64,000 nt of DNA. It comes from a bacterium. Its GTDB lineage: Bacteria; Patescibacteriota; Microgenomatia; Levybacterales; UBA12049. The notes under the pieces are model-generated. The model had not been told where the DNA came from and searched no databases. It saw only the letters and a program-made list of their open reading frames with translations. Shown in pieces: positions 5,499-56,238 of the stretch. The stretch's first letter is position 1; every line of letters begins with the position of its first letter. The DNA lies in assembly GCA_021780675.1 (NCBI GenBank), contig JAJXYH010000013.1:593-64592 (forward strand). Reading direction: 5' to 3'. Made by a program: the position numbers and the translations under genes.

Positions 5499-5744
5499 AT
5501 GAGAAAACTTTTGGCGCTTATCATTTTTTTGTTCCTGATAATCCTGATACCAAATTATTTTACCCAAAGGCAAACAGATGCATATAACAGCAATAATACG
5601 CCGACTACACAGAACGTACAACAACCTACAAATATCCCAACCCCAACTCCTACGGTAATCCCGGCAACTCCTACTCCGCTTCCTCCTATGCAAAACTCTC
5701 TGCAGCTTCCTTCATTTAGAGTAAATGGCGGCGGAGATGATTAA
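5499..5744 (+). CDS. Small membrane-anchored Pro/Thr-rich hypothetical protein.
   Basis: N-terminal TM helix, then a PTPTP low-complexity region. Confidence 0.3.
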   Translation: MRKLLALIIFLFLIILIPNYFTQRQTDAYNSNNTPTTQNVQQPTNIPTPTPTVIPATPTPLPPMQNSLQLPSFRVNGGGDD

Positions 5745-5750
5745 ACTACC

Positions 5751-6545: not shown

Positions 6546-8035
6546 CACAAACTTTTAACAGAATTTTCATCCGATATCCGGTAAAAACCAAAAGGGCTTT
6601 GGAAATCTTACCGGGTTTTGTCTCATGGATGCTTATACTTTTTCCTCTATGGGGTTCTTTTTTTATACCATTGGTGGTTGCCTATTTCATCCTGTTTTTT
6701 GACGTATATTGGTTTTATAAAAGTTTTTCTCTTGTAATTACTGCCTATATTTCATCAAGAAAAATCCGACAGGCGGAAAAAGAAAATTGGCTGGAGGCTG
6801 CAAAACCACTAGAGAATTTTGAAAACACAAGCCATATTGTAATTATTCCTAATTATAAAGAAACATTAGAAAAACTAAGAAAAACTATTGAAAGCTTGGC
6901 TGACCAAAGTTTCCCGGCAAAAAGAATTTACGTTGTACTTGCCATGGAAAAAAGAGAAACCGAAGCAAAAGAAAGAGCAGAAAAACTAACCACAGAATTT
7001 AAAGATGTCTTCGGAGATATTTTTGCAACCTTTCATCCCGATATTCAAGGTGAAGTAAAAGGTAAATCATCTAACGAAAGCTATGCCGGAAAGGTTGCCT
7101 ATAAAAAATTGACTAAAGAGAAAAAAATTGACTATGACTTTACAACTATTTCCTCTGTTGATGCCGATTCTATCTTTGATAAACAGTATTTTTCGTATCT
7201 TACCTTTCTATTTTTAACCGATAAAAATAGGTATGAAAAGTTCTGGCAATCGGCCAATGTTAATTACAATAATTTTTGGAATGTTCCGGCTCCGATTAGA
7301 GTCATTTCATTTTTCGGAAGTCTATACAGAACCGCACTTTTGGTACAAAAAGACAGGCTCGTTTCTAATTCCACTTATTCGCTATCCCTTAAGCTTATGC
7401 ATGAAATCGGATTTTGGGATACAGACGTAATTCCAGAAGATTATAGAATATTCTTTAAGGCATTTTTTAAAAAACAGGGACAAGTATATATGGAGCCAAT
7501 ATTCTTAAAAACTTCCATGGATGCCCCACTTTCTTCAAGCTATGTAAAATCGCTTAATAATAAATACCAGCAGGAAAGAAGATGGAGCTGGGGGGCATCT
7601 GACGATGCTCTGTTTATAAAATGGTGGCTTACTATTCCTAATGTTCCCTTTTTTAGAAAAACACACTTAGTTTTTAATGTTCTGGTAGATCATTTTTTAT
7701 GGCCGGTAAATTGGTTTATAATTACAATAGCTGCAAATATTATGCCGTTTGTTAATCCGGTTTTTACAAGAACTACACTTGGTTACAATCTTCCCAGGAT
7801 GGCTGGATTTATCTTAACCCTCTGTCTATTAGCAACTTTTGGAATGATAATAATAGATTATAGACAACGAAGTTCGCATCAAAAGACTTCGAAAAAAAGA
7901 CAACTTTTATTTCCACTGGAATTTTTGCTTCTTCCTATTATCGGATTTTTCCTTTCTTCACTTCCCGCTCTAATTTCTCATACACAACTTATGCTTGGCA
8001 AAAGACTTGAGTATAAAGTTACAGAAAAACTTTAA
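6542..8035 (+). CDS. Polytopic membrane glycosyltransferase-like protein (GT2-like cytoplasmic domain flanked by TM helices).
   Basis: N-terminal TM pair, a roughly 250-aa soluble domain with a D..D-type acidic patch (SSVDADSIFD), then a C-terminal TM bundle. Start overlaps the tatD stop (ATGA). Confidence 0.45.
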   Translation: MTQTFNRIFIRYPVKTKRALEILPGFVSWMLILFPLWGSFFIPLVVAYFILFFDVYWFYKSFSLVITAYISSRKIRQAEKENWLEAAKPLENFENTSHIVIIPNYKETLEKLRKTIESLADQSFPAKRIYVVLAMEKRETEAKERAEKLTTEFKDVFGDIFATFHPDIQGEVKGKSSNESYAGKVAYKKLTKEKKIDYDFTTISSVDADSIFDKQYFSYLTFLFLTDKNRYEKFWQSANVNYNNFWNVPAPIRVISFFGSLYRTALLVQKDRLVSNSTYSLSLKLMHEIGFWDTDVIPEDYRIFFKAFFKKQGQVYMEPIFLKTSMDAPLSSSYVKSLNNKYQQERRWSWGASDDALFIKWWLTIPNVPFFRKTHLVFNVLVDHFLWPVNWFIITIAANIMPFVNPVFTRTTLGYNLPRMAGFILTLCLLATFGMIIIDYRQRSSHQKTSKKRQLLFPLEFLLLPIIGFFLSSLPALISHTQLMLGKRLEYKVTEKL

Positions 8036-9525
8036 TGATTAACTTATTAAAAAAATTAGAGAAAAACATTAATTTTTGGTTTTTAGTAGGAATATCTTTT
8101 TTATTTTTCTTGTTAAGATTTCCTTCTCTTTTTGAACCTAACTGGTATGGAGATGAAGGAATTTACCAAGTATTGGGATTAGGAATAAATGCGGGGAGAC
8201 TTTTATACAGAGATATTTTCGACAACAAACCACCGCTTCTATATATACTTTACAGCCTCGTAAATTCTAATTTATTTTGGATAAGATTTCTTTCCTTAGT
8301 TGCAGGACTTTTTGCTGTTTGGGGATTTTATTATTTATCTAAGAAAATTTTAAAAACAAAAAAGGCAAGCTTTGTTACAACCGGAATTTTTGCAATACTC
8401 TTCGGTCTTCCTTTAATTGAGGGCAACATCGCAAATGCGGAAAATTTTATGTTGCTTCCTAATATTATTGGTGCAATTCTTGTTTTAAAATCCATAGAGG
8501 TTGCAAGCCTTAATAAAAAATTGATACTGCTTTCTGCATCAGGCTTTATATTGGGTTTATCATTTTTATTAAAAATAGTTGCTGTTTTTGATTTTGCAGC
8601 GTTTTTTATGTTTTTATTTATTGCAGATTTTCCCGGTAAAATTTCGCAATTTTTTGAAAAGGAAAAATTTTTATTAGCCTTTAAAAAACTTTCCGTTTTT
8701 ACCGTTAGCTTTGCCCTTCCGATAATTCTTACTACTTTATTTTTTATTCTAAATAATTCCCTCTCCTATTTCTTAAAAGCAGTTCTTTTCAATAACGTAG
8801 GGTATGTAGGATATGGCAACCAATTTATAATTCCTCAGGGCTTACTGATTATTAAGCTTGCTTTATTGTTAATATCTATACTTTTCTTATTTATTAAAAG
8901 AAAATCATTTGATAAAACTTTTATCTTTGTAGGTATTTGGTTGGGTTTTTCGCTTTTTGATACGTTTTTTTCGCAGCGACCTTATACCCATTATGTATTA
9001 ACACTTTTACCCAGTTTTTGTCTTATGGTTGGTTTACTTTATCAAGATAATAAATCATCTAAACTTGCCGGAATTTTTGCTTTATCAACTCTTATAATAG
9101 TGCTTCTCAATTTTAAGTTTTATTCTAAAACCGGTTATTATTATCAAAATTTTATTTCATACATCACTGGTTTTGAAAAAACTTATGATTACAGGAAATT
9201 TTTTGATGGTAATACTCCGCGTGATTATGAGCTTGCGGACTATCTACTTCTTCAAGAAAAATCCGGATCAAAAACTTTTATCTGGGGTAATAATGCGGAA
9301 GTTTATACACTAATTAATTCTCTTCCTCCCGGAAGATATACTGTTGCTTATCATATTACCAACTATAAAGACGGTTATCAAAATACACTAGACGGATTAA
9401 AAAATAGTCCTCCTCAATTTATTGTAATAATGCCAAATGTTCCATCTTATCCATTCAGCCTTTACGGCTATAATCTAAAAATTAATTTAAGCGGTATAAA
9501 TATTTATGAAAAAATTAATCAATAA
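8035..9525 (+). CDS. GT-C fold membrane glycosyltransferase (ArnT/PMT/GT83-GT39-like).
   Basis: At least 10 TM helices. First extracytoplasmic loop carries WYGDEGIY, the DE motif of GT-C enzymes that use polyprenyl-phosphate sugar donors. C-terminal soluble domain. Confidence 0.55.
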   Translation: MINLLKKLEKNINFWFLVGISFLFFLLRFPSLFEPNWYGDEGIYQVLGLGINAGRLLYRDIFDNKPPLLYILYSLVNSNLFWIRFLSLVAGLFAVWGFYYLSKKILKTKKASFVTTGIFAILFGLPLIEGNIANAENFMLLPNIIGAILVLKSIEVASLNKKLILLSASGFILGLSFLLKIVAVFDFAAFFMFLFIADFPGKISQFFEKEKFLLAFKKLSVFTVSFALPIILTTLFFILNNSLSYFLKAVLFNNVGYVGYGNQFIIPQGLLIIKLALLLISILFLFIKRKSFDKTFIFVGIWLGFSLFDTFFSQRPYTHYVLTLLPSFCLMVGLLYQDNKSSKLAGIFALSTLIIVLLNFKFYSKTGYYYQNFISYITGFEKTYDYRKFFDGNTPRDYELADYLLLQEKSGSKTFIWGNNAEVYTLINSLPPGRYTVAYHITNYKDGYQNTLDGLKNSPPQFIVIMPNVPSYPFSLYGYNLKINLSGINIYEKINQ

Positions 9526-9859
9526 TATTAAATCTGACAAAATTACATTAAGAGGATTTTTACTTAGTTTAATTTTAGGCTTGTTAACAAGTGTGTACGT
9601 ATTGTTTTATTACGGATCACTTCCTCCATTTATTCCTATTTTTAATCAACTTCCCTGGGGGGAACAAAGATTTACCTCTACTATTGGAATTTTTATTCCT
9701 ATCATTATATTTTCTTTATTATTTCTATTTAACCTAATTGTTACCGGAGTTATTTATAACAAAAATCCCCTAATTGCAAGGATAATTGCCGCAACAACTC
9801 TTCTTATAGCTATCATGAATTCTATTTTTATTATAAGAACAATTTTAGTAATAATTTAA
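9506..9859 (+). CDS. Small 3-TM membrane protein, unknown function.
   Basis: 117 aa, three hydrophobic helices. Translationally coupled within the glycan operon. Confidence 0.35.
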   Translation: MKKLINNIKSDKITLRGFLLSLILGLLTSVYVLFYYGSLPPFIPIFNQLPWGEQRFTSTIGIFIPIIIFSLLFLFNLIVTGVIYNKNPLIARIIAATTLLIAIMNSIFIIRTILVII

Positions 9860-10938
9860 TGGAAAATTTAATCCAAATTATTTTTTTTCCGTTTTTAACA
9901 TCTCTTATAGTTACTGCAGTTACAACGCCTTTTATATTACGAATTCTCAAAAAGTTTAACATTGTGGATGATCCAAATAAACATAAACATCCTGCAATAA
10001 TTCACAAAATACCGGTGCCAAGAGGCGGTGGTATACCTCTTTTTATCGGTGCATTTGTGGCAAGCATATTCTTTCTTCCATTTGATAAAGTTTTAATTGC
10101 TACATTTATAGCGAGTTTTATTTCGCTTACGGTTGGAGTATTAGATGATAAATTCGATATCTCCCCTTATTTAAGATTTTTTGTAAATATATTTTGCGCA
10201 ATATTTGTTGTAGCTATGGGAGTAAGCATTCCTTTTATAACCAATCCTTTCGGGGGAATATTATTTTTAAATAATTTTCATCTACCATTTCTTAATAATA
10301 TTTCCATGCCGTTTTTCTCGGAGCTAATTGCAATTGTCTGGATTGTTTGGGTTATGAACATGTTAAATTGGAGTAAGGGAGTTGATGGTCAAATGCCGGG
10401 AATTGTAGCCATTTCCGCAATAACCATTGGCATTCTTAGCCTAAGGTTTTCCCATTTAGACGTTTCAAGTCAAACTGCAGCAACTCTTTCTTTTATAATT
10501 GCCGGTGCTTCGTTGGGTTTTTTAATATTTAATTTTTCTCCGGCTAAAATATTCCCGGGATACGGTGCAACTAGTATATATTTGCTTTTAGCAATTGCGT
10601 CAATTTTATCAGGAGCAAAACTTGCAACTGCAATACTTGTTATGGGAGTTCCTATGACCGACGGATTATTTACAATACTTAGAAGGATTTTGTCGGGAAA
10701 ATCACCCTTTTGGCATGATAAAAAACATCTTCACCATTTGTTATTGGGTTTAGGATTAAGCCAAAGGCGCGTTGCATTGTTTTATTGGATTATTTCTGCT
10801 ATATTAGGCACAATATCATTAGTTCTTTCCAGTAAGGGTAAGCTTTTTGCGATAATAATGTTAGTAATTTTAGTAGGTGGATCATTATTATTTTTACATT
10901 ACTTAATTAATAAAACCAATAATGAAACTAATTTATAA
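9859..10938 (+). CDS. Polyprenyl-phosphate N-acetylhexosamine-1-phosphate transferase (GT4, MraY/WecA family).
   Basis: VLDDKFDISP (DDxxD Mg-binding) and the NxxNxxDGIDGL-like motif NWSKGVDGQ. 10 to 11 TM helices. 359 aa. Confidence 0.8.
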   Translation: MENLIQIIFFPFLTSLIVTAVTTPFILRILKKFNIVDDPNKHKHPAIIHKIPVPRGGGIPLFIGAFVASIFFLPFDKVLIATFIASFISLTVGVLDDKFDISPYLRFFVNIFCAIFVVAMGVSIPFITNPFGGILFLNNFHLPFLNNISMPFFSELIAIVWIVWVMNMLNWSKGVDGQMPGIVAISAITIGILSLRFSHLDVSSQTAATLSFIIAGASLGFLIFNFSPAKIFPGYGATSIYLLLAIASILSGAKLATAILVMGVPMTDGLFTILRRILSGKSPFWHDKKHLHHLLLGLGLSQRRVALFYWIISAILGTISLVLSSKGKLFAIIMLVILVGGSLLFLHYLINKTNNETNL

Positions 10939-11860
10939 CATATTAAGACTTTTAAGACCCAGGCAATGGGTAAAAAACTTCGCTCTCTTTGCGGCAATTA
11001 CATTTGCCGGACAACTCTTTAATCCACCCGTATTTGAAAAAGTGGTATTTAGCTTTTTTGTTTTCTGCGGAATTGCAAGCTCTACATATATTATGAATGA
11101 TATCTTTGATGCTAAAAAAGATAGGCTACACCCGTTTAAAAAATTTAGGCCTATTGCTCATGGTGATGTGCCAATACCCTTTGCAACCGGTCTTGCATTA
11201 TTTTTAATTTTCATATCATTAATAGTAGCCAGAGCTATTACTCCCGGATTTTTTGCTTTATCCATACTTTATTTGCTAATACAGTTTATGTATTCAGGTT
11301 TTTTAAAAACAATTGCTGTAATCGACATACTTTTAATTGCAACCGGATATATTTTAAGAGTTTATGCGGGAGAGTTTGCAAGTGGATTTCATATTTCGGT
11401 TTGGCTATTATTAACAACTATCTCTATCTCGCTTTTTTTGGCAATCGGAAAAAGAAGGTCGGAATTAACGCTTTTATCTCACGAAAAGAATTTGAGTCTA
11501 TCCGAAACACGGGCATCATTAACCCATTATTCGGAAAAATTACTTGATGTATATGCATCAATCTTTGCAACTTCAACTTTTATTTCTTACTCTCTTTTTA
11601 CCTTTTTGGAAAATCCCGGCGGATTTAAATTATCTTTCGGAGTTTTGCTCCCCGATTTTCTGCCCACGTTTTTACAACGCAAGTGGTTAATGATTACTAT
11701 TATTCCTGTTGTTTACGGACTAATGAGATATATTCAGGATATTTATGAAAAGGATGAAGGCGAAAGCCCTGAAAAAGTTCTTTTTTCAGACAAACCATTG
11801 TTAGTAACTGTAGCTATTTGGACAGTCTTAGTAGTTTTTCTTGTATATTTTGTCTCCTAA
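10922..11860 (+). CDS. UbiA-family prenyltransferase of the decaprenyl-phosphate 5-phosphoribosyltransferase (DPPR synthase) subfamily.
   Basis: N-terminal LRPRQWVKN hallmark of the DPPR-synthase subfamily. NDxxDxxxD motif (NDIFDAKKD). 8 to 9 TM helices. Confidence 0.65.
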   Translation: MKLIYNILRLLRPRQWVKNFALFAAITFAGQLFNPPVFEKVVFSFFVFCGIASSTYIMNDIFDAKKDRLHPFKKFRPIAHGDVPIPFATGLALFLIFISLIVARAITPGFFALSILYLLIQFMYSGFLKTIAVIDILLIATGYILRVYAGEFASGFHISVWLLLTTISISLFLAIGKRRSELTLLSHEKNLSLSETRASLTHYSEKLLDVYASIFATSTFISYSLFTFLENPGGFKLSFGVLLPDFLPTFLQRKWLMITIIPVVYGLMRYIQDIYEKDEGESPEKVLFSDKPLLVTVAIWTVLVVFLVYFVS

Positions 11861-12708
11861 GGATGTTTTTGCGCGTATTGTGAGCTTATCCACCCGTTGC
11901 TACCATCAGATAATTTTATTTCATACCATCCTGTTTTTTCATCTAAAAGTTCGTATGTTTCACCCGGTTTTACCTGAGATATTTCTGCAGCGGAAAGACT
12001 TGCATCTTGTCTAACCCTTAAAAACCCGGTTGGCGTTTGTAATATTAACACTGCTTGTGTATTTGATTTTACTCCGGACTGAAGTTCTGACGGCATCGTA
12101 AGCGCCGAACTTGAGGCGTTAAAATCGGGATCTATCCCTAAATAAATCAAGGCTTCCAGTTTATATCCCAAAACACTTCTAACTCTTATAATTTTATCTT
12201 TGTATCCTTTATAAGAAACTTCTAATTCATGATCACTTTCTTTAACATTTTTAATAATTTGGGGACTTACTCCTTGTAACTTACTGTCTAAAAAAACTTG
12301 TGCGCCGGATGGAGAGGTCACAACGGCAATTTGAGCATCATTTTTATTGTCTATCGAAGATAAACTAATAATACTTGCATTACCCAAACCTTTTTCTGCA
12401 AAATTTTTATCAACTACGGTTAATGTTTTAGGGGAAATGGTAACTGTCTGTTCAAAAGGATTAGCACTGCCAGACTGTGGCACTAACTTAAGAGTATAAC
12501 TTCCTTGATAAAGCATGTCTTTTAAATCACATTTACAAAGTGGTGTTACTCCAACTAACTTATCGTTTAAATAAACTTTTGAGTTGGGATTTGAAGTAAT
12601 CTGCAAAGCACCTTTGCCTTTATTTAATATAAATAAATATGAAATTACTATGAATACTAAAACTGCTGCCAGAATTGTAAGAAAAACATATAAAAATTTC
12701 TTCATCAA
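11857..12708 (-). CDS. Membrane-anchored extracytoplasmic protein with a PEGA domain and a C-terminal bacterial SH3 domain.
   Basis: N-terminal signal anchor. PEGA-like NSKVYLNDKLVGVTPL. C-terminal GWYEIKLSDGSNGWISSQY, typical of SH3b. Confidence 0.5.
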   Translation of the reverse strand: MMKKFLYVFLTILAAVLVFIVISYLFILNKGKGALQITSNPNSKVYLNDKLVGVTPLCKCDLKDMLYQGSYTLKLVPQSGSANPFEQTVTISPKTLTVVDKNFAEKGLGNASIISLSSIDNKNDAQIAVVTSPSGAQVFLDSKLQGVSPQIIKNVKESDHELEVSYKGYKDKIIRVRSVLGYKLEALIYLGIDPDFNASSSALTMPSELQSGVKSNTQAVLILQTPTGFLRVRQDASLSAAEISQVKPGETYELLDEKTGWYEIKLSDGSNGWISSQYAQKHP

Positions 12709-12773
12709 AGTATTTTAACATTATAACTTAAAAGGGGGTATAAAAAAACTGTTTACTCCGAATATTTATTGTA

Positions 12774-14411
<1,638 letters not shown>

Positions 14412-14708
14412 TTATTCTACAATTGCCAAAATATCTTTTTGTTCAACTAAGATTAATTCCTCGCCATTGACTTTAATTTCATTTCCTCCCCATTTTTTAT
14501 ACATAACTTTTTGACCAACTTTAACAACTATTTTTTCAACTTCTCCTTTTGGCATTACTTTACCCGGCCCAACTGCAACAATTTCTCCCATTTGCGGTTT
14601 TTCTTTAGCAGAATCGGGAAGTAAAATCCCGGATGCGGTTTTCTCTTCGGCCTCTAAAGGCCTTACTAAAATATTGTCAAAAAGCGGTTGAATTTTTGTT
14701 TTTGCCAT
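14412..14708 (-). CDS. groS: Co-chaperonin GroES (Cpn10).
   Basis: 98 aa. Mobile-loop sequence and the ILLPDSAKEKPQ.GEIVAVG pattern. Confidence 0.95.
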   Translation of the reverse strand: MAKTKIQPLFDNILVRPLEAEEKTASGILLPDSAKEKPQMGEIVAVGPGKVMPKGEVEKIVVKVGQKVMYKKWGGNEIKVNGEELILVEQKDILAIVE

Positions 14709-14742
14709 AAAATTAAAATATCAGTTGATTGTCTAGAGTGCT

Positions 14743-14772
14743 AGTTTAGCAGATACCCATTTTTTTTGTCAA
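14743..14772 (-). promoter_or_regulatory. Sigma-70-like promoter for groES-groEL (TTGACA, 18-nt spacer, TAAACT), followed by a degenerate CIRCE-like element (CTAGCACTC).
   Basis: Minus-strand reading gives TTGACAAAAAAAATGGGTATCTGCTAAACTAGCACTCTAGA. TAGCACTC matches a CIRCE half-site, but no properly spaced partner half-site is present. Confidence 0.35.
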
Positions 14773-14827
14773 GGGTTTAAATTAACCCAGTTGACAAATA
14801 AACAAAACATTGTGAATAATATTATTG

Positions 14828-19386: not shown

Positions 19387-19950
19387 ATGTGGAAAAAATC
19401 TTCCTCTATAAATTTAGTAAAAAAGGACAATAATCAGCTTGCAAATCAGGTCATAAACTGGGCACTAACTATTGGAAGATTAATGGTAATAATTGTTGAA
19501 ATTATTGCTCTTTCGGCATTTATATATAGATTCTATTTAGATAATCAATTAAGAGACATTAATGCGAAAATTCAACAAGATCAGGCTGTTTTAAGTTCCC
19601 AGAGGCAAAAAGAGGTAGAGTATAGAAACCTACAAGATCGCCTAAATTTAGAATCTTTAATTGTTAACCAGGGAAAACAACAATTAAATACATTTAAAGA
19701 AGTAATTGGATTAACCCCTCAAGGAATAAGCTATACAAACTTTTCGTTAATAGGTAACCAATTAAATATTCAGTTAAACACTTCTTCCGTCTTTCCACTT
19801 AGTGCACTTGTTGATCAATTAAGAAAGTATCCCCAGACCGATTTTATCAGTATAAATACAATTGAAAATAGAGCTTCAACCACGGTAATAAGCGTTGGAC
19901 TAACTGTAAATCTTAAAACTAAAGGAGGGATTATAAATGGCGGGAATTAA
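19387..19950 (+). CDS. PilN-like type IV pilus/competence assembly protein (bitopic, coiled-coil).
   Basis: Short cytoplasmic N-terminus, one TM helix, a periplasmic coiled-coil, then a PilN-like C-terminal domain. About 190 aa. Confidence 0.4.
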   Translation: MWKKSSSINLVKKDNNQLANQVINWALTIGRLMVIIVEIIALSAFIYRFYLDNQLRDINAKIQQDQAVLSSQRQKEVEYRNLQDRLNLESLIVNQGKQQLNTFKEVIGLTPQGISYTNFSLIGNQLNIQLNTSSVFPLSALVDQLRKYPQTDFISINTIENRASTTVISVGLTVNLKTKGGIINGGN

Positions 19951-20569
19951 AGAATTAATCTTAAAAAGTGTTAAACAAGACAGATACCAAAAATATGTAG
20001 AGCTTATACCGGAATTAAAATCGGAAAAAAGTGAGAAAATGGTCATGGTAATTTTAACCATTGTAGCTTTTATAGTTTTAGGTCTATTTGCAATAAAACC
20101 AACTCTTTCAACAATTGCAAGTCTACAAAAACAAGTGAATGATAGTAAATACTTCGAGTTTAGATTGGAAGAAAAAATAAATAATCTTTCGCTTTTGGAT
20201 CAGAAATACCACAGCATTATACAAGATTTACCGTTAATTTATGACGCAGTACCAGCTACTCATCAAATAGCTACACTTGCGGCAACGATTCAAACTATTG
20301 CTACCCCTTCTGGTATAAATCTTGTAGACTTAGAGGTTCAAAATGCCGATATTTCAAAAAATGCTATTGCATCAAAAAAATATTCCAGTTTTGACTTTAC
20401 AGTTGGTGCTCAGGGAAATTACCAAGATCTTATTGACCTTACCGGTAATATTATAACTTTTCAAAGAATCTTAACACTTAAAAGCATATCTATTGTAAAA
20501 TCTACTACAGTTAAGCAAGAGGCAACTTTACAGTTGAATGTATCTGGAAATGCTTATTTCAAACCTTAA
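19937..20569 (+). CDS. PilO-like pilus assembly protein.
   Basis: Same bitopic plus coiled-coil architecture. Overlaps the pilN-like gene by 14 nt. Confidence 0.35.
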   Translation: MAGIKELILKSVKQDRYQKYVELIPELKSEKSEKMVMVILTIVAFIVLGLFAIKPTLSTIASLQKQVNDSKYFEFRLEEKINNLSLLDQKYHSIIQDLPLIYDAVPATHQIATLAATIQTIATPSGINLVDLEVQNADISKNAIASKKYSSFDFTVGAQGNYQDLIDLTGNIITFQRILTLKSISIVKSTTVKQEATLQLNVSGNAYFKP

Positions 20570-20572
20570 TTT

Positions 20573-20866
20573 ATGAAAAAAAAGGATTTACTAATTATTC
20601 TTATTCCGACACTTATATTTGTTATTGCCTGGATTGGCTTTAGCATCTATGACAGTGCAGTAACTTCCACAATTTCATCACAAGAAGTTTCACAAATTAC
20701 GCCTATTGATCCAACTTTTAATACAGCTGTAATTTCTGAACTTAAAAAACGTAACAGAATTGAACCTAAATATGTAACATCGGAGACTCCAAGTCCAACA
20801 CCATCACCAAAGCTTACGAATACAAAAAATGCCGAAGCAACTAGCGGAGGGGCATTAAAACCATGA
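20573..20866 (+). CDS. Small membrane-anchored Pro/Thr/Ser-rich protein (PilP-like position).
   Basis: Single TM helix plus a low-complexity extracytoplasmic tail. 4-nt overlap with the next gene. Confidence 0.3.
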   Translation: MKKKDLLIILIPTLIFVIAWIGFSIYDSAVTSTISSQEVSQITPIDPTFNTAVISELKKRNRIEPKYVTSETPSPTPSPKLTNTKNAEATSGGALKP

Positions 20867-22137
20867 ACAAGTCGGTTTTAAATAAAAGAATCCCTACTCT
20901 CTTAGGGTTGATTATAATTATCTTCGGACTAAGTGTTACTACCCTCTTAACAAATAAAGCAACATTTTTACAATCAAACGCAACAGAAAATAAACAACCG
21001 CAAGACGTAAGAATTACTAATATAAGTGATAATTCATTTACTGTTTCTTATACAACAGTTTCTATGGAAAGTGGATTTGTTAAATACGGATCAACCGGAT
21101 CGCTAGATCAAACTGCATTTGATGACAAAGACACCACTCAAAAATTACAGACACATATTGTACACAGCATCACATTAAATAACCTAAATCCTGATACTAA
21201 ATATTATTTCTCTATTAATAGCGGTGGGGAAACATACTTAGATAATAATAACAACTTCGAAATAACAACTGCTGCTAATACATTTAACGCAACTTCTAAT
21301 TCTCCTGTTTCAGGAAGAGTGATGCTTGCAAATTCAAACCCTCCCAAGGAAGCAATTGTTTACATAACAGTAGATAACTCTCAAGTCTTATCAACACTCG
21401 TCAATACTGATGGTACATATAAAATAGACCTCCAGCATCTATTAAATTTTAATTTATCAAATACTCTTAGTCTTACAAGAGATTCCGTGATAAAAATGCT
21501 TGTCGCAGGAGATTCGTTATCCTCAAATGTCACATTGAATTATTACCAAAGCGCTGATGTCCCCGTAATCACACTTTCAAACAATTATGACTTTAGAGAA
21601 GGCAATCAACAAACAGCAAGTCCATCTGCTGCACTTGAGGGATTTCCAATGCAAAATATAACGTCATCAAAATCTAATAGTATTAGCATACTAAGCCCAT
21701 CTAAAGATCAGGTTATTTCTACTCAACAACCGGTATTAAAGGGTCAAGCAACGCCCAACCAAAATTTACAAATTACTATTCATTCGCAACAGGTCGTAAA
21801 AGCAAATGTTATTACCGACTCAAGCGGCAACTGGAGCTATCAACCAACTACACCACTTGATCCGGGAACACACACAATAACAGTAACCGGTAAGGATTCA
21901 AAAGGTATTCTAAGAACAATTACCGAAAGTTTCACGGTTTATGCTGCTGAAAATTCTTCTACAGCAACTGCTGCCATAGAAACACCGACTAATACACCCA
22001 CTACCGTAACTGCACAAAATAAAAAGCAAACATTGATAACAACAAATAACACCTCTATAATCACAGCAATTATTGTAGGATTAATAATTACTTTTGTTGG
22101 GGGTTTTATTTTCCTTCTGTCCCGCAAAGGAATTTAA
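20863..22137 (+). CDS. Cell-surface protein with fibronectin-III-like and Ig-like domains, anchored by an N-terminal signal/TM and a C-terminal TM helix.
   Basis: FN3-like block (ITNISDNSFTVSYTT...LNPDTKYYFSI). Ig-like block (PGTHTITVTGKDSKG). C-terminal hydrophobic helix followed by RKGI. Confidence 0.45.
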   Translation: MNKSVLNKRIPTLLGLIIIIFGLSVTTLLTNKATFLQSNATENKQPQDVRITNISDNSFTVSYTTVSMESGFVKYGSTGSLDQTAFDDKDTTQKLQTHIVHSITLNNLNPDTKYYFSINSGGETYLDNNNNFEITTAANTFNATSNSPVSGRVMLANSNPPKEAIVYITVDNSQVLSTLVNTDGTYKIDLQHLLNFNLSNTLSLTRDSVIKMLVAGDSLSSNVTLNYYQSADVPVITLSNNYDFREGNQQTASPSAALEGFPMQNITSSKSNSISILSPSKDQVISTQQPVLKGQATPNQNLQITIHSQQVVKANVITDSSGNWSYQPTTPLDPGTHTITVTGKDSKGILRTITESFTVYAAENSSTATAAIETPTNTPTTVTAQNKKQTLITTNNTSIITAIIVGLIITFVGGFIFLLSRKGI

Positions 22138-22138
22138 T

Positions 22139-23416
22139 ATGAAAATAGCCATAATTGGTGCAGGCTTTACCGGCCTTTCCGCAGCATATGAGTTATCGAA
22201 AAAGGGTCATAAAGTAACTGTATTTGAAAAAGATAAAAACCCCGGTGGTCTTGCAGTGGGATTTAAACAAAAAGGATGGAAATGGTCGCTTGAAAAGCAT
22301 TACCACCATTGGTTTACTAACGACAAGGAAATTATAAGCTTAGCCAAAGAAATTAAATTTCCGGTAGTCACTAGACGTCCAAAAACAAGTATATATGTTA
22401 ATCAAAATACATATAAGCTTGATTCCCCGCTAAACGTTATCTTCTTCCCACTTTTACCTATTATTGATAGGTTTAGATTGGGATTTTCTATTGCTGTTTT
22501 TCGATTTAATCCTTTCTGGAAACCATTAGAAAAATATAACGCTGTTAAAATCTTACCAAAACTTATGGGCAAAAAAGCCTATGAAATGATCTGGGAACCT
22601 CTTTTTATAAATAAATTTGGTAGGTTTTCTCAAAATGTTTCTCTGGCCTGGTTTTGGGCAAGAATTATCAAAAGAACACCATCGCTTTGTTATCCTAAAG
22701 GTGGATTCTTAGAGTTTGCAAATAGCTTAACAAAGAAAATCGAGGAAAAAGAAGGAGTATTTTATTTTAGTACCGAGGTCAAAAAACTCGAGTCTGATAA
22801 TTTACCCCTAATTACATACCAAAAAGAAAACGCAGTAATAGAAACAGAAGAGTTTGATAAAGTCATAGTAACTACTCCTATCTTTATCTTCTTCTCGTTT
22901 ACTCCACAGCTTCCCGAAAAGTATAAAAATAATATACTAAACTTGAAAAGCTTGGGTGCAATAAATTTAGTATTAAGACTTAAAAAACCATTTTTTAAAG
23001 ATAATACTTATTGGTTAAGCGTATGCGATAAAAATGCTCCGGTTATGGCAATTGTTGAACACACCAACTTTATCGACAAAAAAAACTATAATAATGAACA
23101 TTTACTTTATCTTGGAAATTACAAAGAGCGGGAAAATAGTTTATTCTCAATGGATGCCAATCAAATCTTAAGTCTATTTGACCCCTATTTAAAAAAAATT
23201 AACCCCAAATATTCAAAATTTATCATCGGATATGATCTTTTTAAAGATCCTTTTGCTCAACCGGTTATTCCCGTTAATTATTCAAAGATAATTCCTAAAA
23301 TGATTACACCTCTTAAAAATGTGTATCTTGCAAATATCGAACAGGTATACCCCTGGGACAGGGGAACTAACTATGCCGTTGAGCTTGGAAAAAGAGTTGC
23401 TGATAAAGTAATTTAA
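22139..23416 (+). CDS. FAD-dependent Rossmann-fold enzyme resembling UDP-galactopyranose mutase (Glf) / amine-oxidase family.
   Basis: N-terminal GxGxxG (IIGAGFTGLSAAYEL). HHWFTNDK corresponds to Glf HIFHTNDK. A KxxxWG....ARIIKR block is collinear with E. coli Glf. The ORF track begins upstream at 22094, but the ATG at 22139 directly follows the stop of the previous gene. Confidence 0.5.
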   Translation: MKIAIIGAGFTGLSAAYELSKKGHKVTVFEKDKNPGGLAVGFKQKGWKWSLEKHYHHWFTNDKEIISLAKEIKFPVVTRRPKTSIYVNQNTYKLDSPLNVIFFPLLPIIDRFRLGFSIAVFRFNPFWKPLEKYNAVKILPKLMGKKAYEMIWEPLFINKFGRFSQNVSLAWFWARIIKRTPSLCYPKGGFLEFANSLTKKIEEKEGVFYFSTEVKKLESDNLPLITYQKENAVIETEEFDKVIVTTPIFIFFSFTPQLPEKYKNNILNLKSLGAINLVLRLKKPFFKDNTYWLSVCDKNAPVMAIVEHTNFIDKKNYNNEHLLYLGNYKERENSLFSMDANQILSLFDPYLKKINPKYSKFIIGYDLFKDPFAQPVIPVNYSKIIPKMITPLKNVYLANIEQVYPWDRGTNYAVELGKRVADKVI

Positions 23417-23418
23417 TA

Positions 23419-25041
23419 ATGAAAAAAATAAAGCTTTTCGTAATTAAATATAAGCTGGAGATTATTATAGTTATTTTCTCTTTAATATTTTCTACTTGGC
23501 TTATGTTTTCTTCCTTTTCTTACGAAAATGGTTTTATGCAAATCTCAACAAAATCATGGAGTGATTTTGCTAGTCATATTCCCTTAATTAGATCATTTTC
23601 TTTTGGAAATAATTTTCCGCCTGAATATCCCCTTTTCTTAGGACCTGCTATCAAATATCATTTTTTATTTTTTGCAGTGGTTGGGTATCTTGAGCGTTTT
23701 GGCTTAAGAATTGATTATGCGTTTAACATCCCCTCAATTTTAGGATTCAGTTTTTTAATTTTTATGATTTATATTTTTTCAAAATATTTATTTAAGTCTA
23801 AAAGTGTTGGTGTATTAAGCATAATCTTCTTTTTGTTTAATAGTTCGCTTGATTTTGTAAAATTTTTTACAAAAACCCCGTTATCTCTAAACACCCCCAT
23901 AGATATTATTACTAATAAAACTTTTCCGTCCTTTGGTCCTTATGATAATAGTGTAATTTCTGCATTTTGGAACTTAAATATCTATACAAACCAAAGGCAT
24001 CTTGGATTGTCTTACGCGTTGTCTCTACTTTTAATCTATTTTGTATTAAAAAATATTACAAATAAAAAAATATCTTATAAATACTATCTATTACTAGGAG
24101 TTGCAACGGGATTATTGTTCTTTTTAAACATGGCAGTCTTTTTAATGACGATGATTATACTGCTTTGTATGCTTCTAATATTTTCTAAAAATAGGGTAAA
24201 ATTATTCATTCTAATTTTATCTACCGGAGTTATTGCTTTTCCACAATATCTGTATGTTGAATCCGGACCATCAATTTTTCATATAAAAATTCATGTGGGA
24301 TATCTTTTGAATCGTGTTGATTTGTTTTCCTTTTTAAATTATTGGTGGCAAAATATAGGATTGAATCTAATTCTTATACCAATTGGTTTTATACTTTCGG
24401 ACAAAACAGCTAAAAAAGTAATTATTTCATTTTTTACCCTTTTTATGGTCGGAAATGTATTACAATTTTCTCCCGAAATTGCTGCTAATCATAAATTTTT
24501 TAATTTTTTTGTAATTATAGGCAGCATGTATTCGGCGTTTTTAATTATCAAGCTATTTAGAAAAAACATTAAATACAAATTACTTGGCATAAGTTTAGTT
24601 TTATTACTTACCCTGTCTGGAATTATCGACTTCTTCCCAATCTACAATGACACTAAAATCAATCTTGCCGACTATTCGCAAAACAAAAATATTTTATGGA
24701 TTAAAGATCATACGTCTCAAAAGGCAAAATTTCTAAATACAGACTATCTTTACGATACAGCATCATTAGCGGGAAGAAGAATATTTTTAGGATGGCCTTA
24801 TTTTGCATGGTCACAAGGGTATGATACGACTTCAAGAGATAATTTACGAAAATCTCTACTGTTAACTAACAATTTTTCTTATTTTTGTAGTAATATATCA
24901 AAATATAAAATCAGTTTTGCCGAAGTTAATACAAATTCACAGGATGCTAAGGTAAACATAAATTTTTTTAACAATAATTTTCCTAAGGTTTATACTAATA
25001 ATAGTAATTATAGTATTTACAATTTAAGTAGGTGCAGATGA
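23419..25041 (+). CDS. Large polytopic membrane protein, putative GT-C-type glycosyltransferase.
   Basis: 540 aa, at least 11 TM helices. Conserved acidic/aromatic first loop. C-terminal soluble domain. 3-nt gap after the Glf-like gene. Confidence 0.4.
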   Translation: MKKIKLFVIKYKLEIIIVIFSLIFSTWLMFSSFSYENGFMQISTKSWSDFASHIPLIRSFSFGNNFPPEYPLFLGPAIKYHFLFFAVVGYLERFGLRIDYAFNIPSILGFSFLIFMIYIFSKYLFKSKSVGVLSIIFFLFNSSLDFVKFFTKTPLSLNTPIDIITNKTFPSFGPYDNSVISAFWNLNIYTNQRHLGLSYALSLLLIYFVLKNITNKKISYKYYLLLGVATGLLFFLNMAVFLMTMIILLCMLLIFSKNRVKLFILILSTGVIAFPQYLYVESGPSIFHIKIHVGYLLNRVDLFSFLNYWWQNIGLNLILIPIGFILSDKTAKKVIISFFTLFMVGNVLQFSPEIAANHKFFNFFVIIGSMYSAFLIIKLFRKNIKYKLLGISLVLLLTLSGIIDFFPIYNDTKINLADYSQNKNILWIKDHTSQKAKFLNTDYLYDTASLAGRRIFLGWPYFAWSQGYDTTSRDNLRKSLLLTNNFSYFCSNISKYKISFAEVNTNSQDAKVNINFFNNNFPKVYTNNSNYSIYNLSRCR

Positions 25042-27230
25042 ACAATCAAGATATAATTTATATTTTAAGATGGTTTCTTACTTTTTTTGTTATCGGTATA
25101 TCTTTTTTACCGATAACTTTAAATTTGTTTAATAACTTTAGAGATAAAGGTTATATCTTTTCCAAAATCATAGGAATGATAGTACTCTCCTACTTTATTT
25201 TTATCTTAGGGATTCTAAGATTATCCCAATTTTCTTTTTCTTTAACAATTATCTTATTAATTATATTATTTGTATTAAATTATTCTATTTTTGATAGGAA
25301 AAATATTCTTGTTACAATTAAGAAAAATTTAAATATATTTATATTTGAAGAAATAATTTTTTTTATTACCTTGGTCTTTTGGTCGTTCATAAGAAGCCGC
25401 ATGCCGGACATTTTTGGGCTAGAGAAATTTATGGATTTTGGTTTCTTAAACTCAATTTTAAGAAGTGATTACTTTCCGCCCAAAGACATGTGGTACACAC
25501 CGCTTCCAATAAATTATTATTATTTCGGGCATCTTATAACTGCTGTATTAACCAAAATATCGCAAATCCCTTCATTTATAAGCTATAACTTAATGATTAC
25601 TACTCTTTTTGCCTTAACTTTTACTTCGGCGTTCTCAATTGCGGTTAACCTTCTTAGCGAATTTAAGTCTAAATTTATAACTAAAGTATTATCTTTCATA
25701 TTTCCCGTTTTCTTGGCGTTTGGAGGAAACCTTACCACAATATATACATTCTTTAAGCCTTATACACCGGCAGATATGCCTATACCGTTTTGGAATTTAC
25801 AGTTTTTGCCCTTTAGCTTCCCAAATGACTTTTGGTATCCTAACGCTACCCGTTTTATTCCTTTTACAATTCATGAGTTCCCTATTTATTCCTTTGTAGT
25901 TTCAGATTTACATGGCCACGTATTAGACATACCTATTGTTTTACTAACTATAGCTTTTCTCTTCTCAATAATTTTAAGGATTAATAAGCAAAATGATAAA
26001 CAGTTATTGTTTAGTAATCATTTTTTAAAAATATTTAATACTATAAAAATTAAATCGCTTGAAAATTGGAAATTTAAATTCACCGATTTAATTATAGTGA
26101 GCTTTTTATTGGCAATAATGTATATGGCAAATGCCTGGGACGGGCTAATCTATTTTCTTTTAACTGGGCTGATAATTATTTTTTTAAATTTTTCAAAAGA
26201 AAATTTAGGCGAGTTTATTATAAATTCATTTAATAATACCCTGACCGTCGGTTTAGGATTTTTACTATTTTCACTTCCATTTAGTATTAATTTTAAGCCG
26301 TTTGTTTCCGGAATAGGAATATTATGTGCGCCGGGATTTCTTACAAAAATTGGTAAAATTGGGCCATTTCTTTTTGAAGCAAATCACTGTCAAAAATCAC
26401 CAATCTGGCAATTACTTATACTTTATGGCTTTTTCTATTTTTTTGTATTTTCATTTATTTCCTTTTTAAAATTTAAGAGAAAATATACATTATCAAATAA
26501 CGATAAATTTGTTCTAATATTAATAATTTTATCTACAATTTTAATTGTTGTTCCTGAATTTATTTACGTTAAAGATATCTATCCCTTACATTACCGTGCT
26601 AATACAATGTTCAAGCTTGTTTATCAGTCATTTATAATGCTGTCTCTTGTAAGCGGTTATGTGTTAATAAAACTTATGTTTGAGATAAAAAATATAATTT
26701 TAAAACTGGCTTTCACTGGAGTTGCTATTTTCTTAAGTTTCTTTATATTAATATATCCGTTTTTTGCAATCGGGTCATACTACAATAATTTAACGGGAAA
26801 AGGATCGTTAGACGGATTTAAATATATGTTAAAAACTTATCCTCAGGATTACAATTTAATAAACTGGGTCAATAGCAATATTAAAGGGCAACCGGTCGTT
26901 TTGGAAGCAAACGGTGATTCATATACCGAATATGCAAGAATTTCGGCAAATACAGGACTACCTACGGTTATAGGATGGCCGGTGCATGAATGGCTTTGGA
27001 GAGGAACCTACGATATTGTCGCACCCAGAATTGATGACGTTAGAACTTTATATACAACTTCCGATATAAGCTTAACAAAATCATTAATTAAAAAATATAA
27101 TATTTCTTACGTAGTGGTATCCATGCTTGAAGAAAAAAAATATCCCGGTATAAACATTAATAAATTTAATACTTTAGGAAAAATCGTCTATCAAAATGGT
27201 GGGGCTACTCTCTATAAAATCACAGACTAG
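25032..27230 (+). CDS. Chlor_Arch_YYY-domain membrane protein (putative GT-C glycosyltransferase, 732 aa).
   Basis: Signature PINYYYFGH, matching the YYY motif of the Chloroflexi/Archaea domain family. About 14 TM helices plus a C-terminal globular domain. Overlaps the previous gene by 10 nt. Confidence 0.5.
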   Translation: MQMNNQDIIYILRWFLTFFVIGISFLPITLNLFNNFRDKGYIFSKIIGMIVLSYFIFILGILRLSQFSFSLTIILLIILFVLNYSIFDRKNILVTIKKNLNIFIFEEIIFFITLVFWSFIRSRMPDIFGLEKFMDFGFLNSILRSDYFPPKDMWYTPLPINYYYFGHLITAVLTKISQIPSFISYNLMITTLFALTFTSAFSIAVNLLSEFKSKFITKVLSFIFPVFLAFGGNLTTIYTFFKPYTPADMPIPFWNLQFLPFSFPNDFWYPNATRFIPFTIHEFPIYSFVVSDLHGHVLDIPIVLLTIAFLFSIILRINKQNDKQLLFSNHFLKIFNTIKIKSLENWKFKFTDLIIVSFLLAIMYMANAWDGLIYFLLTGLIIIFLNFSKENLGEFIINSFNNTLTVGLGFLLFSLPFSINFKPFVSGIGILCAPGFLTKIGKIGPFLFEANHCQKSPIWQLLILYGFFYFFVFSFISFLKFKRKYTLSNNDKFVLILIILSTILIVVPEFIYVKDIYPLHYRANTMFKLVYQSFIMLSLVSGYVLIKLMFEIKNIILKLAFTGVAIFLSFFILIYPFFAIGSYYNNLTGKGSLDGFKYMLKTYPQDYNLINWVNSNIKGQPVVLEANGDSYTEYARISANTGLPTVIGWPVHEWLWRGTYDIVAPRIDDVRTLYTTSDISLTKSLIKKYNISYVVVSMLEEKKYPGININKFNTLGKIVYQNGGATLYKITD

Positions 27231-28344
27231 GATTTTGCGGTATCACACAACTACTATTATTTATTTCACAAGAAATATACTTTTGTATCTCAGAAAAATT
27301 GCCGTCACCAATTCTTGGAATAAGTACCCACGAATAGTCATATTCTGCAGTATAAGGCGGGTTAAATAAAAGTCCGGGTCTGTTTGTTGCGGGATCTCCA
27401 TAATCTATGACAGCACTTTGGATTTTAGCACCTTTCATTTTCTGTGCAAGCCTTACAAAATCATCGAATTCACTTTGCTTAATATCGGTATCTATACTCC
27501 CGCTTAAAATACTGTAAAGTTGGATTATCTTTGCCGGATTTATCAACGTTTGTGCAGATAATATTTTATCTTTAAGAGCCTTTATTACTTTTTCCTGCCT
27601 TTTACTCCTTGCAAAATCCGTTCCCTCGACTCCTGTTGCATGTCTTGATCTTACAAATTCAAGAGCAGTTTCTCCATCCATATGCATTAAACCTTTATCA
27701 AAATGTACATGCTTATACCTACATGGAAATTTAATTAAATCCATTTCTGCCGATGCGGTACCACTTTCGGTATATGCCTTAATATCCTCTGCTAAGTTTC
27801 CGCAAGTATCATCTTCTTTTCCACTAATCGGGTACGCATAATCGTCAAATGTATTATCAACATTAATGTCTAGTCCTCCTAGGATATCAACTGCTTTTAC
27901 AAAACCTGAAAAATCAACTCTAACACCGTAATCTATATGTTGCCCTGTAATTTTACTAACTACAGCTTCTGCCTCAACCAATCCTCCTCCTTTTCTTTTA
28001 TTCTCCCCATCTGCATAGGCTTCATTTACTTTTTTAAAGCTAGTGGTTAAGCTGGGAAACCACAAATCACGCGGGATAGAAGTAAGAACCACTTTATTAT
28101 TTTTTTGATTTACTGATGCAAGAATTATCGTATCGGTTAAATTCGGTCCATCATGACTTCCTCCCCCAATACCTAAAAGTAATATATTAATATTATTATT
28201 GGTTTGTTTTAAAGAAACTCCTTTATCAACTACCAATTGGAATAAAAAGGGATAAAAACTTGCTGTTTTATAAACAAAAAATCCTATTATGATTAATAGG
28301 AAAACTAATAGGGCTAGTAATGGCCTTTTTTTATTTCTACGCAT
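27220..28344 (-). CDS. LytR-CpsA-Psr (LCP) family cell-wall glycopolymer phosphotransferase.
   Basis: Signal anchor. Conserved LCP core ILLLGIGGGSHDGPNLTDTIILASV...IPRDLW. Confidence 0.8.
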   Translation of the reverse strand: MRRNKKRPLLALLVFLLIIIGFFVYKTASFYPFLFQLVVDKGVSLKQTNNNINILLLGIGGGSHDGPNLTDTIILASVNQKNNKVVLTSIPRDLWFPSLTTSFKKVNEAYADGENKRKGGGLVEAEAVVSKITGQHIDYGVRVDFSGFVKAVDILGGLDINVDNTFDDYAYPISGKEDDTCGNLAEDIKAYTESGTASAEMDLIKFPCRYKHVHFDKGLMHMDGETALEFVRSRHATGVEGTDFARSKRQEKVIKALKDKILSAQTLINPAKIIQLYSILSGSIDTDIKQSEFDDFVRLAQKMKGAKIQSAVIDYGDPATNRPGLLFNPPYTAEYDYSWVLIPRIGDGNFSEIQKYISCEINNSSCVIPQNPSL

Positions 28345-28999
28345 TTTTAATTATGTTTAAAAATTCCATGGGGTCAAGACTTGCTCCACCCACCAAAACG
28401 CCTTTTATTTTATCACTTTTTGTAAAATTTGCTACATTATCTGAAGTAACACTTCCACCATAAAGAACAGAAAGATTGTCATGGTTAGCGATGATATCTT
28501 CGCAAACCTTATCCGCATTTTCTGGAGTATCTGGAGTTCCGGTGCCAATAGCAAAAACGGGCTCATAGGCAACAACATTCACTCCTTGTGGAATATTTGT
28601 ATCTTTTCCCTGAACACAGAATATGGGAGTTAATCCGTATTTTAAAGCTAAATTCACCTTTTTAGTTAACATTTCATCTGTCTCCCCAAAGTTATTTCTT
28701 CGTTCAGAATGTCCAATTATTACATAATCTGCAAAATCTTTAATTTGTTTACCATTTACCTCACCCGTAAATGCCCCTTCATCAAAAGGTGACAAATTCT
28801 GTGCCGAAAGCTTGATATTTGTACCGGAAAAAACTGAATTAAAACTTAAAAGGAATGTAAAAGTTGGAGCTAAAATGACTTCTTTGTCGCCCATATTTTT
28901 CAGTTCCTGCTTATGACTAATAAAGACATCTAGCCAGTTTTTAGCCTCATTATTAGTCATATTAGACTTAAAATTGGCAACTATATAAAGCTTTTCCAT
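28337..28999 (-). CDS. tpiA: Triosephosphate isomerase (compact, 220 aa).
   Basis: ANFK substrate-binding N-terminus, catalytic IIGHSERR, C-terminal GGASL-type phosphate-binding loop (VGGASLD). Confidence 0.8.
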   Translation of the reverse strand: MEKLYIVANFKSNMTNNEAKNWLDVFISHKQELKNMGDKEVILAPTFTFLLSFNSVFSGTNIKLSAQNLSPFDEGAFTGEVNGKQIKDFADYVIIGHSERRNNFGETDEMLTKKVNLALKYGLTPIFCVQGKDTNIPQGVNVVAYEPVFAIGTGTPDTPENADKVCEDIIANHDNLSVLYGGSVTSDNVANFTKSDKIKGVLVGGASLDPMEFLNIIKNA

Positions 29000-56150: not shown

Positions 56151-56238
56151 ATTTTTAATTAGAAAGAATTCTTCAAAAATATATCTTCCCAGATGGTTTA
56201 TATTTATTGTATTAAATGAAGAAAAGAAAGGTAAATAG

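Follow-up and report, generated by a model that had tools for sequence, protein, structure and literature searches.

Why should a gene for a flavoenzyme be packed tightly against the genes of two large membrane proteins that resemble glycosyltransferases? This arrangement is found at positions 22139 to 28344 of a 64-kb stretch of DNA (the window) in contig JAJXYH010000013.1 of assembly GCA_021780675.1, from a bacterium of the Microgenomatia. An earlier note, made from the sequence alone, took four genes there for a UDP-galactopyranose mutase (UGM, or Glf), two membrane proteins like glycosyltransferases of fold C (GT-C) and a LytR-CpsA-Psr (LCP) phosphotransferase, and read them as a wall-polymer pathway. 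All four open reading frames (ORFs) exist in the window, and the interpretation as a whole is partly supported. The window has a G+C content of approximately 33%, and its proteins are 62-69% identical to those of Candidatus Levybacteria (Microgenomates) in the Candidate Phyla Radiation (CPR). Our data favour, with a probability of roughly 0.55, the view that the genes at 22139-27230 form the far end of a single operon that opens with pilN/pilO-like and surface-protein genes, and that the flavoenzyme and two DUF2298-type GT-Cs encoded there would work on a lipid-linked sugar donor.

The two membrane proteins and their operon

The larger membrane protein scored 488.5 bits against TIGR03662 (cut-off 300.25), matched PF10060 with an E value of 2e-96 and carries the YYYxG motif in the form PINYYYFGH, so its earlier assignment to the Chlor_Arch_YYY (DUF2298) family is confirmed. 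Its membrane domain is structurally similar to solved GT-C enzymes. The best structural matches are protein O-mannosyltransferases, and the C-terminal globular domain resembles that of archaeal oligosaccharyltransferase. Sequence kinship of this domain with AglB was considered and rejected because it has no match in the PDB; the likeness is structural only. The second membrane protein, of 540 aa, has no Pfam or NCBIfam match of its own. A profile of its family, built from 43 diverse relatives, aligned with the DUF2298 profile over 473 columns (hhalign probability 97.7%, E 2.4e-12), and the C-terminal part of the protein itself shares 27% identity with the DUF2298 protein. PF10060 recognises only one of the 43 representatives, and the orthologue in locus L004 carries this domain. 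The 540-aa protein has IKYHFLF where the DUF2298 protein has INYYYFGH. In the DUF2298 protein E129 and D133 of the motif GxEKxMD are invariant from CPR to Chloroflexota, and D133 aligns with D49, which is invariant in the 540-aa family; all three were placed in the first extracytoplasmic loop from predicted helices rather than by superposition. The GT-C-like label given to both proteins stands, by fold match for the DUF2298 protein and by profile homology for the 540-aa protein, and the two are paralogous GT-C-fold glycosyltransferases, presumably so in the case of the shorter one.

Tandem copies are common in this family. A scan of metagenomes with a DUF2298 protein of the Chloroflexota as the seed gave 80 loci (26-89% identity), which carry no taxonomy, and 36 of them contain a second DUF2298-type gene in tandem, often in a giant form. 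The tandem pair in the window thus reflects a general theme of the DUF2298 family. The giant proteins of 1,500-2,500 aa lie directly upstream of a DUF2298 protein of approximately 800 aa in L088, L091, L099, L147, L163 and other loci.

The flavoenzyme gene begins with an ATG 1 nt past the stop codon of a surface-protein gene. The 540-aa gene follows it after 2 nt, not the 3 nt described before. The DUF2298 gene overlaps the 540-aa gene by 4 nt (ATGA) when it is started at the ATG chosen by gene callers and homologues, which gives 730 aa; the 732 aa and 10-nt overlap described earlier hold only for an upstream GTG. Further upstream, pilN-like and pilO-like genes, a gene for a 97-aa transmembrane (TM) protein with a tail rich in Ser, Thr and Pro, and the fn3/Big_13 surface-protein gene occupy 19387-22137 on the same strand; no gap or overlap between neighbours exceeds 4 nt. 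For this reason the flavoenzyme, 540-aa and DUF2298 genes are regarded as the tail of a longer operon, and its junctions of 1 nt, 2 nt and the ATGA overlap indicate probable translational coupling. A scan for promoters and terminators was uninformative because the counts were at or below the expectation from shuffled sequence, and it gave no convincing internal terminator.

The flavoenzyme and its family

The flavoenzyme scored 394.6 bits over residues 1-424 against NF005560/PRK07233 (cut-off 252), a curated family named 'hypothetical protein'. Homologues from Chloroflexota, Nanoarchaeota and an alphaproteobacterium likewise exceeded this cut-off, with 397-496 bits. Pfam found Amino_oxidase over the full length, NAD_binding_8 and DAO in the protein, and no GLF domain (PF03275) at E<=0.01. 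The fold is of the amine-oxidase, protoporphyrinogen oxidase (PPOX) and phytoene desaturase (PDS) type.

The blocks shared with UGM, on which the proposed Glf identity was based, do align at the profile level. Against an E. coli Glf reference sequence, checked to be identical to PDB 1I8T, hhalign gave a weakly significant match (probability 88%, E 2.8e-6, 297 columns) that pairs HHWFTNDK, at residue 56 of the flavoenzyme, with HIFHTNDK, RIIKRTP with IIKRIPVR and MAIVEHTNF with TRIIEHKHF. A PDB search with residues 41-206 alone gave no UGM up to an E value of 10, so the blocks by themselves are not significant. Conservation was read from 71 family members of four phyla. The core Y-H-H-x-F-x-x-D is invariant among them, and the 'TN' of the TNDK block is not conserved. 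Together with the search with residues 41-206, this shows the resemblance to be remote flavoprotein-superfamily homology and not a Glf signature.

The active sites were compared through remote alignments rather than superposition, and only part of that of Glf is retained. The equivalent of E. coli R278, which we take to be the arginine that binds the UDP pyrophosphate (R280 in K. pneumoniae), is A304. This position is Ala in 55 of the 71 members, Gly in 6, Val in 4, Ser in 2 and never Arg. The arginine of IIKR in the Glf mobile loop is kept as R179 and is Arg in 70 of 71 members. On balance we judged the protein to be the kind of oxidase homologue that the earlier note had named as incompatible with Glf. 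Its fold does not single out UGM among the flavoenzyme families either: PDS and PPOX reach equal or higher scores, and bacterial UGMs lower ones, of 27.7 and 24.7. Family assignment, fold ranking and the missing arginine together rule out a Glf identity, and the flavoenzyme is a remote relative of UGM that belongs to a family of its own, as yet uncharacterised. Compared with UGM (E. coli 1I8T, K. pneumoniae and T. cruzi 4DSG), it is also approximately 60 aa longer than the bacterial enzymes, and its gene is linked to those of GT-C and flippase-like proteins rather than of galactofuranosyltransferases of the GT-A type. It is therefore very improbable that a Glf supplies UDP-galactofuranose here, that the GT-Cs polymerise a galactofuranan or arabinan and that the LCP protein ligates the polymer to peptidoglycan. 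The known galactofuranosyltransferases use UDP-galactofuranose and are GT-A, not GT-C, enzymes, and the LCP gene is unlinked outside Microgenomates. The minimal wall-polymer pathway of mutase and LCP ligase is thus not upheld.

The nearest characterised relatives, PDS and HpnE, favour chemistry on a prenyl chain. The flavoenzyme might accordingly modify the isoprenoid carrier by saturation, desaturation or dehydroxylation of polyprenol, yielding a lipid preferred by archaeal-type GT-C/Agl23 systems. We regard this as rather unlikely. The flavoenzyme is only 12-18% identical to PDS, PPOX and HpnE, its scores lie far below the cut-offs of their families, and its gene is not set among genes for carotenoids, haem or hopanoids, nor were genes of isoprenoid synthesis found alongside. 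The residues conserved in its family are mostly polar or aromatic (Y55, H56, H57, D62, K159, R175, R179, E307, H308, N310, D407, R408 and N411), and so many invariant Arg, Lys, His and Tyr would be unusual for a hydrocarbon-binding tunnel. We take this to speak for a substrate with a phosphosugar head group rather than one that is purely hydrocarbon.

Gene neighbourhoods in other genomes

Both families are large, with 7,459 relatives of the flavoenzyme among the 8,000 candidates scored in the first search and 3,322 for DUF2298. Neighbourhoods were examined in 80 flavoenzyme-anchored loci, one genome per species, and in the 80 DUF2298-anchored loci, by means of stop-to-stop ORFs and self-built profiles. 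In Levybacteria and close Microgenomates the order is Big_13 protein, flavoenzyme, 540-aa paralogue, DUF2298, LCP and triosephosphate isomerase (TIM). Some Microgenomates have extra PMT_2 and GT1 genes between the flavoenzyme and DUF2298 genes, and the surface-protein gene lies upstream of the flavoenzyme gene in all Microgenomates loci. Four loci titled 'uncultured Gammaproteobacteria' (L006, L007, L009 and L021) have the Levybacteria-type order and proteins 42-61% identical to those of the window; their taxonomy is probably mislabelled.

Approximately 55 loci are from Chloroflexota or DPANN archaea, and their flavoenzymes are 33-44% identical to that of the window. In Chloroflexota the constant partner is a flippase-like protein (LPG_synthase_TM/TIGR00374) encoded immediately upstream of the flavoenzyme on the same strand, in 26 loci by clustering and in 23 of 55 nearest-upstream ORFs by Pfam, and the downstream side is variable. 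The two members of this module (L011-L069, for example 8432-11320 in L062) are weakly related to HpnL and HpnE, respectively. Three DUF2298-anchored loci (L128, L139 and L165) contain a tight co-directional operon of DUF2298, an Agl23-like protein, the flippase-like protein and the flavoenzyme. L074, a metagenome-assembled genome (MAG) of the Dehalococcoidia, has the same order followed by a short-chain dehydrogenase/reductase (SDR) gene, and its flavoenzyme is the nearest to those of the L128 type, with 46-51% identity. L134 and L158 are close variants of this operon in which the flavoenzyme was called by hidden Markov model matches, L134 having an extra Agl23-like copy; looser arrangements occur in L029 and L155. 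The link between flavoenzyme and DUF2298 therefore occurs in at least two phyla, in different gene orders, and is facultative.

The usual partner of DUF2298 is a GT-C of the TIGR03663 type, named 'flippase activity-associated protein Agl23' in NCBIfam, which follows it directly in 33 of the 63 non-CPR loci whose downstream flank measures 1.5 kb or more. In Haloarcula, Agl23 has been tied experimentally to hexose-P-dolichol use and to flipping of the lipid-linked glycan, and the purified protein translocates lipid-linked oligosaccharide in vitro (PMC11182771). The Agl22/Agl23 route of Haloarcula hispanica serves S-layer protein glycosylation via hexose-P-dolichol. It resembles the present system in that DUF2298 and Agl23 are both membrane proteins of the GT-C type that handle lipid-phosphate-sugars (PMC11182771), in the adjacency of their genes, and in that the flippase-like and flavoenzyme genes follow them in the Dehalococcoidia-like loci. 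It differs in that the host here is a bacterium with peptidoglycan, and in that the second membrane protein of the window is a DUF2298 paralogue unrelated to Agl23 at the profile level. No TIGR03663 member was found in the window with an Agl23-like profile or NCBIfam. The 540-aa protein had been considered as the CPR counterpart of Agl23/TIGR03663, and this was rejected because hhalign found no relation to the Agl23-like profile in either of two comparisons. The searchable literature reports no role of DUF2298 or the flavoenzyme in the archaeal pathway. The second Agl23-like protein of L134 (14206-17553) matches NHL/ScyF-type models in its C-terminal part, and may be an extracytoplasmic beta-propeller fused to a GT-C-like domain.

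The fourth gene of the locus encodes a genuine member of the LCP family, with 115.1 bits for PF03816 (cut-off 24.6) and 97.6 bits for TIGR00350 (cut-off 62.3). As described earlier, it converges on the DUF2298 gene with an overlap of 11 nt. On its own strand it lies downstream of the TIM gene (28337-28999), which it overlaps by 8 nt. Its proposed part in the pathway is not borne out, however, since the linkage is confined to collinear Microgenomates relatives: no LCP homologue occurs in the 80 DUF2298-anchored non-CPR loci, and among the flavoenzyme-anchored loci outside Microgenomates only L038 and L044 have one, 6-8 kb away. These counts rule out LCP as a conserved partner, and the gene is a lineage-specific neighbour rather than a demonstrated component. 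Of the linkage of Glf, LCP and Chlor_Arch_YYY once proposed, only that of flavoenzyme and DUF2298, which recurs in Chloroflexota, is retained.

Several observations weigh against a joint function of the flavoenzyme and the GT-Cs on a lipid-linked sugar. A block of unrelated genes (MurJ, S20, TIM, UvrD and FemAB) is also collinear in Microgenomates, so adjacency there carries little weight alone. DUF2298 lies within 10 kb of the flavoenzyme in only 2 of the approximately 55 Chloroflexota/DPANN loci (L029 and L074), and of the 48 DUF2298 loci whose flank measures 6 kb or more, only 6 have the flavoenzyme; the coupling must therefore be facultative, or else the genes are as a rule unlinked. The Dehalococcoidia-like cases have a single architecture in common and may go back to one evolutionary event. 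The nearest structural and family relatives of the flavoenzyme, PDS, HpnE (57-86 bits) and PPOX, act on lipophilic substrates, not sugars. Finally, within the 64 kb of the window we found no flippase-like (LPG_synthase_TM) gene and none of the DprE1 and DprE2 homologues considered below. The flavoenzyme could then be a housekeeping oxidoreductase whose place next to the GT-C genes means no more than that the region is collinear, as the conservation of the MurJ-to-FemAB block across Levybacteria and relatives and the lack of a nearby DUF2298 gene in most Chloroflexota loci would allow. We consider such a lack of any functional link quite unlikely, because the junctions point to translational coupling, the same two families are linked in another order in the Dehalococcoidia-like loci, L029 and L155, and the other recurrent neighbours of the flavoenzyme are envelope glycan or lipid genes (flippase-like protein, UbiA, GT-C, UDP-glucose dehydrogenase and epimerases).

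Proposed sugar donor and possible acceptor

Approximately 10 kb upstream, a first glycan locus (6.5-11.9 kb) encodes GT2-like, PMT_2-like and WecA/MraY-type proteins and a UbiA-family protein (Table 1). The UbiA protein scored 226.7 bits against NF008978, the model for decaprenyl-phosphate phosphoribosyltransferase (cut-off 207), and fell below the cut-offs of the sister models NF008977 (224.9 versus 234) and NF008976 (161 versus 474). It probably makes a polyprenyl-phospho-pentose donor. UbiA orthologues adjoin the flavoenzyme elsewhere: in L076 (Gottesmanbacteria) the order is flavoenzyme, UbiA and a PMT-like GT-C, and in L021 it is flavoenzyme, Big_13-like protein, UbiA and a TMEM260-like GT-C. 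The NF008978 match and these adjacencies support the earlier view that the two loci of the window belong to one system.

Table 1. Genes of the two loci in the window, with family assignment
Feature	Position	Strand	Assignment and remarks
GT2-like protein	6542-8035	+	First locus; Pfam/NCBIfam, several matches of this locus weak
PMT_2-like GT-C	8035-9525	+	First locus; Pfam/NCBIfam, as above
117-aa TM protein	9506-9859	+	First locus
WecA/MraY-type GT4	9859-10938	+	First locus; Pfam/NCBIfam, as above
UbiA-family prenyl-phosphate phosphoribosyltransferase-like protein	10922-11860	+	First locus; NF008978
fn3/Big_13 surface protein	20863-22137	+	Pfam Big_13, Pur_ac_phosph_N and fn3; 1 nt separates it from the flavoenzyme gene
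Flavoenzyme	22139-23416	+	425 aa; cytoplasmic, FAD-dependent; NF005560/PRK07233
540-aa polytopic membrane protein	23419-25041	+	Short divergent DUF2298 paralogue; presumed GT-C glycosyltransferase
DUF2298 / Chlor_Arch_YYY protein	25038-27230 (GTG start 25032)	+	730 aa (732 from GTG); GT-C fold and C-terminal globular domain
LCP family protein	27220-28344	-	Convergent on the DUF2298 gene; neighbour, module membership not demonstrated

With the DprE1-like (FAD_binding_4) and DprE2-like (SDR) proteins of L060 as phmmer queries, no homologue was found in the window. Since UbiA passes NF008978 and these two enzymes are missing from the window, the bacterium may make a donor of the polyprenyl-phospho-ribose type. 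The flavoenzyme might then oxidise or epimerise the sugar of the UbiA product, as a non-homologous analogue of DprE1/DprE2 or an addition to them, and so supply the GT-Cs with a furanosyl donor of the arabinan type or a related one. The polar candidate active-site residues and the SDR gene downstream of the flavoenzyme in L074 would fit this role, as would the adjacency of the flavoenzyme and UbiA genes in L076, L021 and L060. In L060, an alphaproteobacterial MAG, three polytopic membrane proteins without a Pfam match, the flavoenzyme (476 bits to NF005560), a HAD-UbiA fusion (PRK08238, 587 bits) and the DprE1-like and DprE2-like proteins are encoded at 5627-14805, in a cluster of the decaprenyl-phospho-arabinose type with an extra flavoenzyme. 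This coexistence argues that the flavoenzyme is not a simple substitute for DprE1/DprE2. Furthermore, adjacency to UbiA is limited to 3 of approximately 58 loci, UbiA is lacking within 10 kb in the majority of Chloroflexota loci, and DprE1 has an unrelated vanillyl-alcohol oxidase (VAO) fold. We therefore think this role unlikely.

The mycobacterial arabinogalactan pathway comprises WecA, the GT2 enzymes GlfT, Glf, UbiA (Rv3806c), DprE1/DprE2, GT-Cs of the Aft/Emb type and Lcp1. Unlike this pathway, and unlike pilin arabinosylation by TfpW in P. aeruginosa, the window has neither DprE1/DprE2 nor a true Glf; in addition, its GT-Cs are DUF2298 proteins rather than Aft/Emb, and the LCP linkage is not conserved.

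To our knowledge, all GT-C enzymes take polyprenyl-phosphate-linked donors outside the membrane. The GT-C fold and the neighbours (UbiA, Agl23-like and flippase-like proteins) lead us to infer such a donor for the pair in the window. The donor would be built by the WecA-like GT4, the GT2, the PMT_2-type GT-C and the phosphoribosyltransferase-like UbiA of the first locus, as parts of the same system. The flavoenzyme, which is cytoplasmic and probably membrane-associated, would prepare the lipid-linked donor on the cytoplasmic face before flipping, either by redox chemistry or isomerisation of the sugar head group or by action on the prenyl chain. Chemistry on the head group is favoured by the polar invariant residues, the remote similarity to UGM and the UbiA/DprE context, and action on the chain by the kinship with PDS and HpnE. 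The GT-C pair would then act at the membrane's outer face, moving the sugar from the polyprenyl-phosphate donor to an extracytoplasmic acceptor.

The surface protein encoded in the same operon is a possible acceptor. It has an N-terminal TM segment, a Thr/Ser-rich stalk and a C-terminal TM anchor with a basic tail. In six orthologues from related loci the stalk reaches 40-57% Ser and Thr in a 40-aa segment; the copy in the window was assessed by eye. The GT-Cs may O-glycosylate this stalk, or pilus or S-layer proteins, and we put this forward tentatively. The O-mannosyltransferase matches and the oligosaccharyltransferase-like C-terminal domain of the DUF2298 protein argue for a protein acceptor, as do the constant position of the stalk protein directly upstream in Microgenomates, the pilN/pilO-like genes of the operon, the service of Agl23, the partner of DUF2298 elsewhere, in protein glycosylation in Haloarcula, and the TMEM260-like GT-Cs beside the flavoenzyme gene in L021 and L076. 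Protein O-glycosylation is thus at least as plausible as a polymer linked to peptidoglycan.

An unrelated feature of the window is a tRNA-Ile gene with the anticodon TAT at 56238-56310, which is unusual in bacteria. In most bacteria AUA is decoded by a CAT tRNA that carries lysidine.

Searches of the literature for DUF2298/Chlor_Arch_YYY/TIGR03662/PF10060, PRK07233, TIGR03663 and PF03706 gave nothing relevant, and matches to 'YYY domain' concerned an unrelated sensor domain. GT-C glycosylation fed by lipid-linked donors is already known; the families that fill these roles here are uncharacterised. As a speculation with a modest chance of being right, the PRK07233 flavoenzymes may be an unrecognised part of lipid-linked sugar-donor synthesis, as enzymes of UGM/PPOX fold that isomerise or oxidise a polyprenyl-phosphate-sugar instead of a nucleotide sugar. 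Such an enzyme could be, for instance, a DprE1-like oxidase or a mutase that interconverts pyranose and furanose at the lipid level. Its product would enter a DUF2298/Agl23 glycosylation of archaeal type, common to CPR, Chloroflexota and DPANN archaea. Our analysis places DUF2298 in the GT-C fold and identifies its usual partner as Agl23, the sole member of the neighbourhood with experimental data. DUF2298, Agl23, the flavoenzyme and the flippase-like protein together form a concrete hypothesis of four components that gives both families a testable role, and cultivated Chloroflexota carry these genes, among them Leptolinea tardivitalis (L038), Oscillochloris (L069) and Thermoflexus hugenholtzii (L036). 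In CPR bacteria, which need to attach to their hosts and have a nearly uncharted surface chemistry, the locus points to a conserved operon for envelope glycosylation, linked with pilus-like genes and with a surface protein that bears a stalk.

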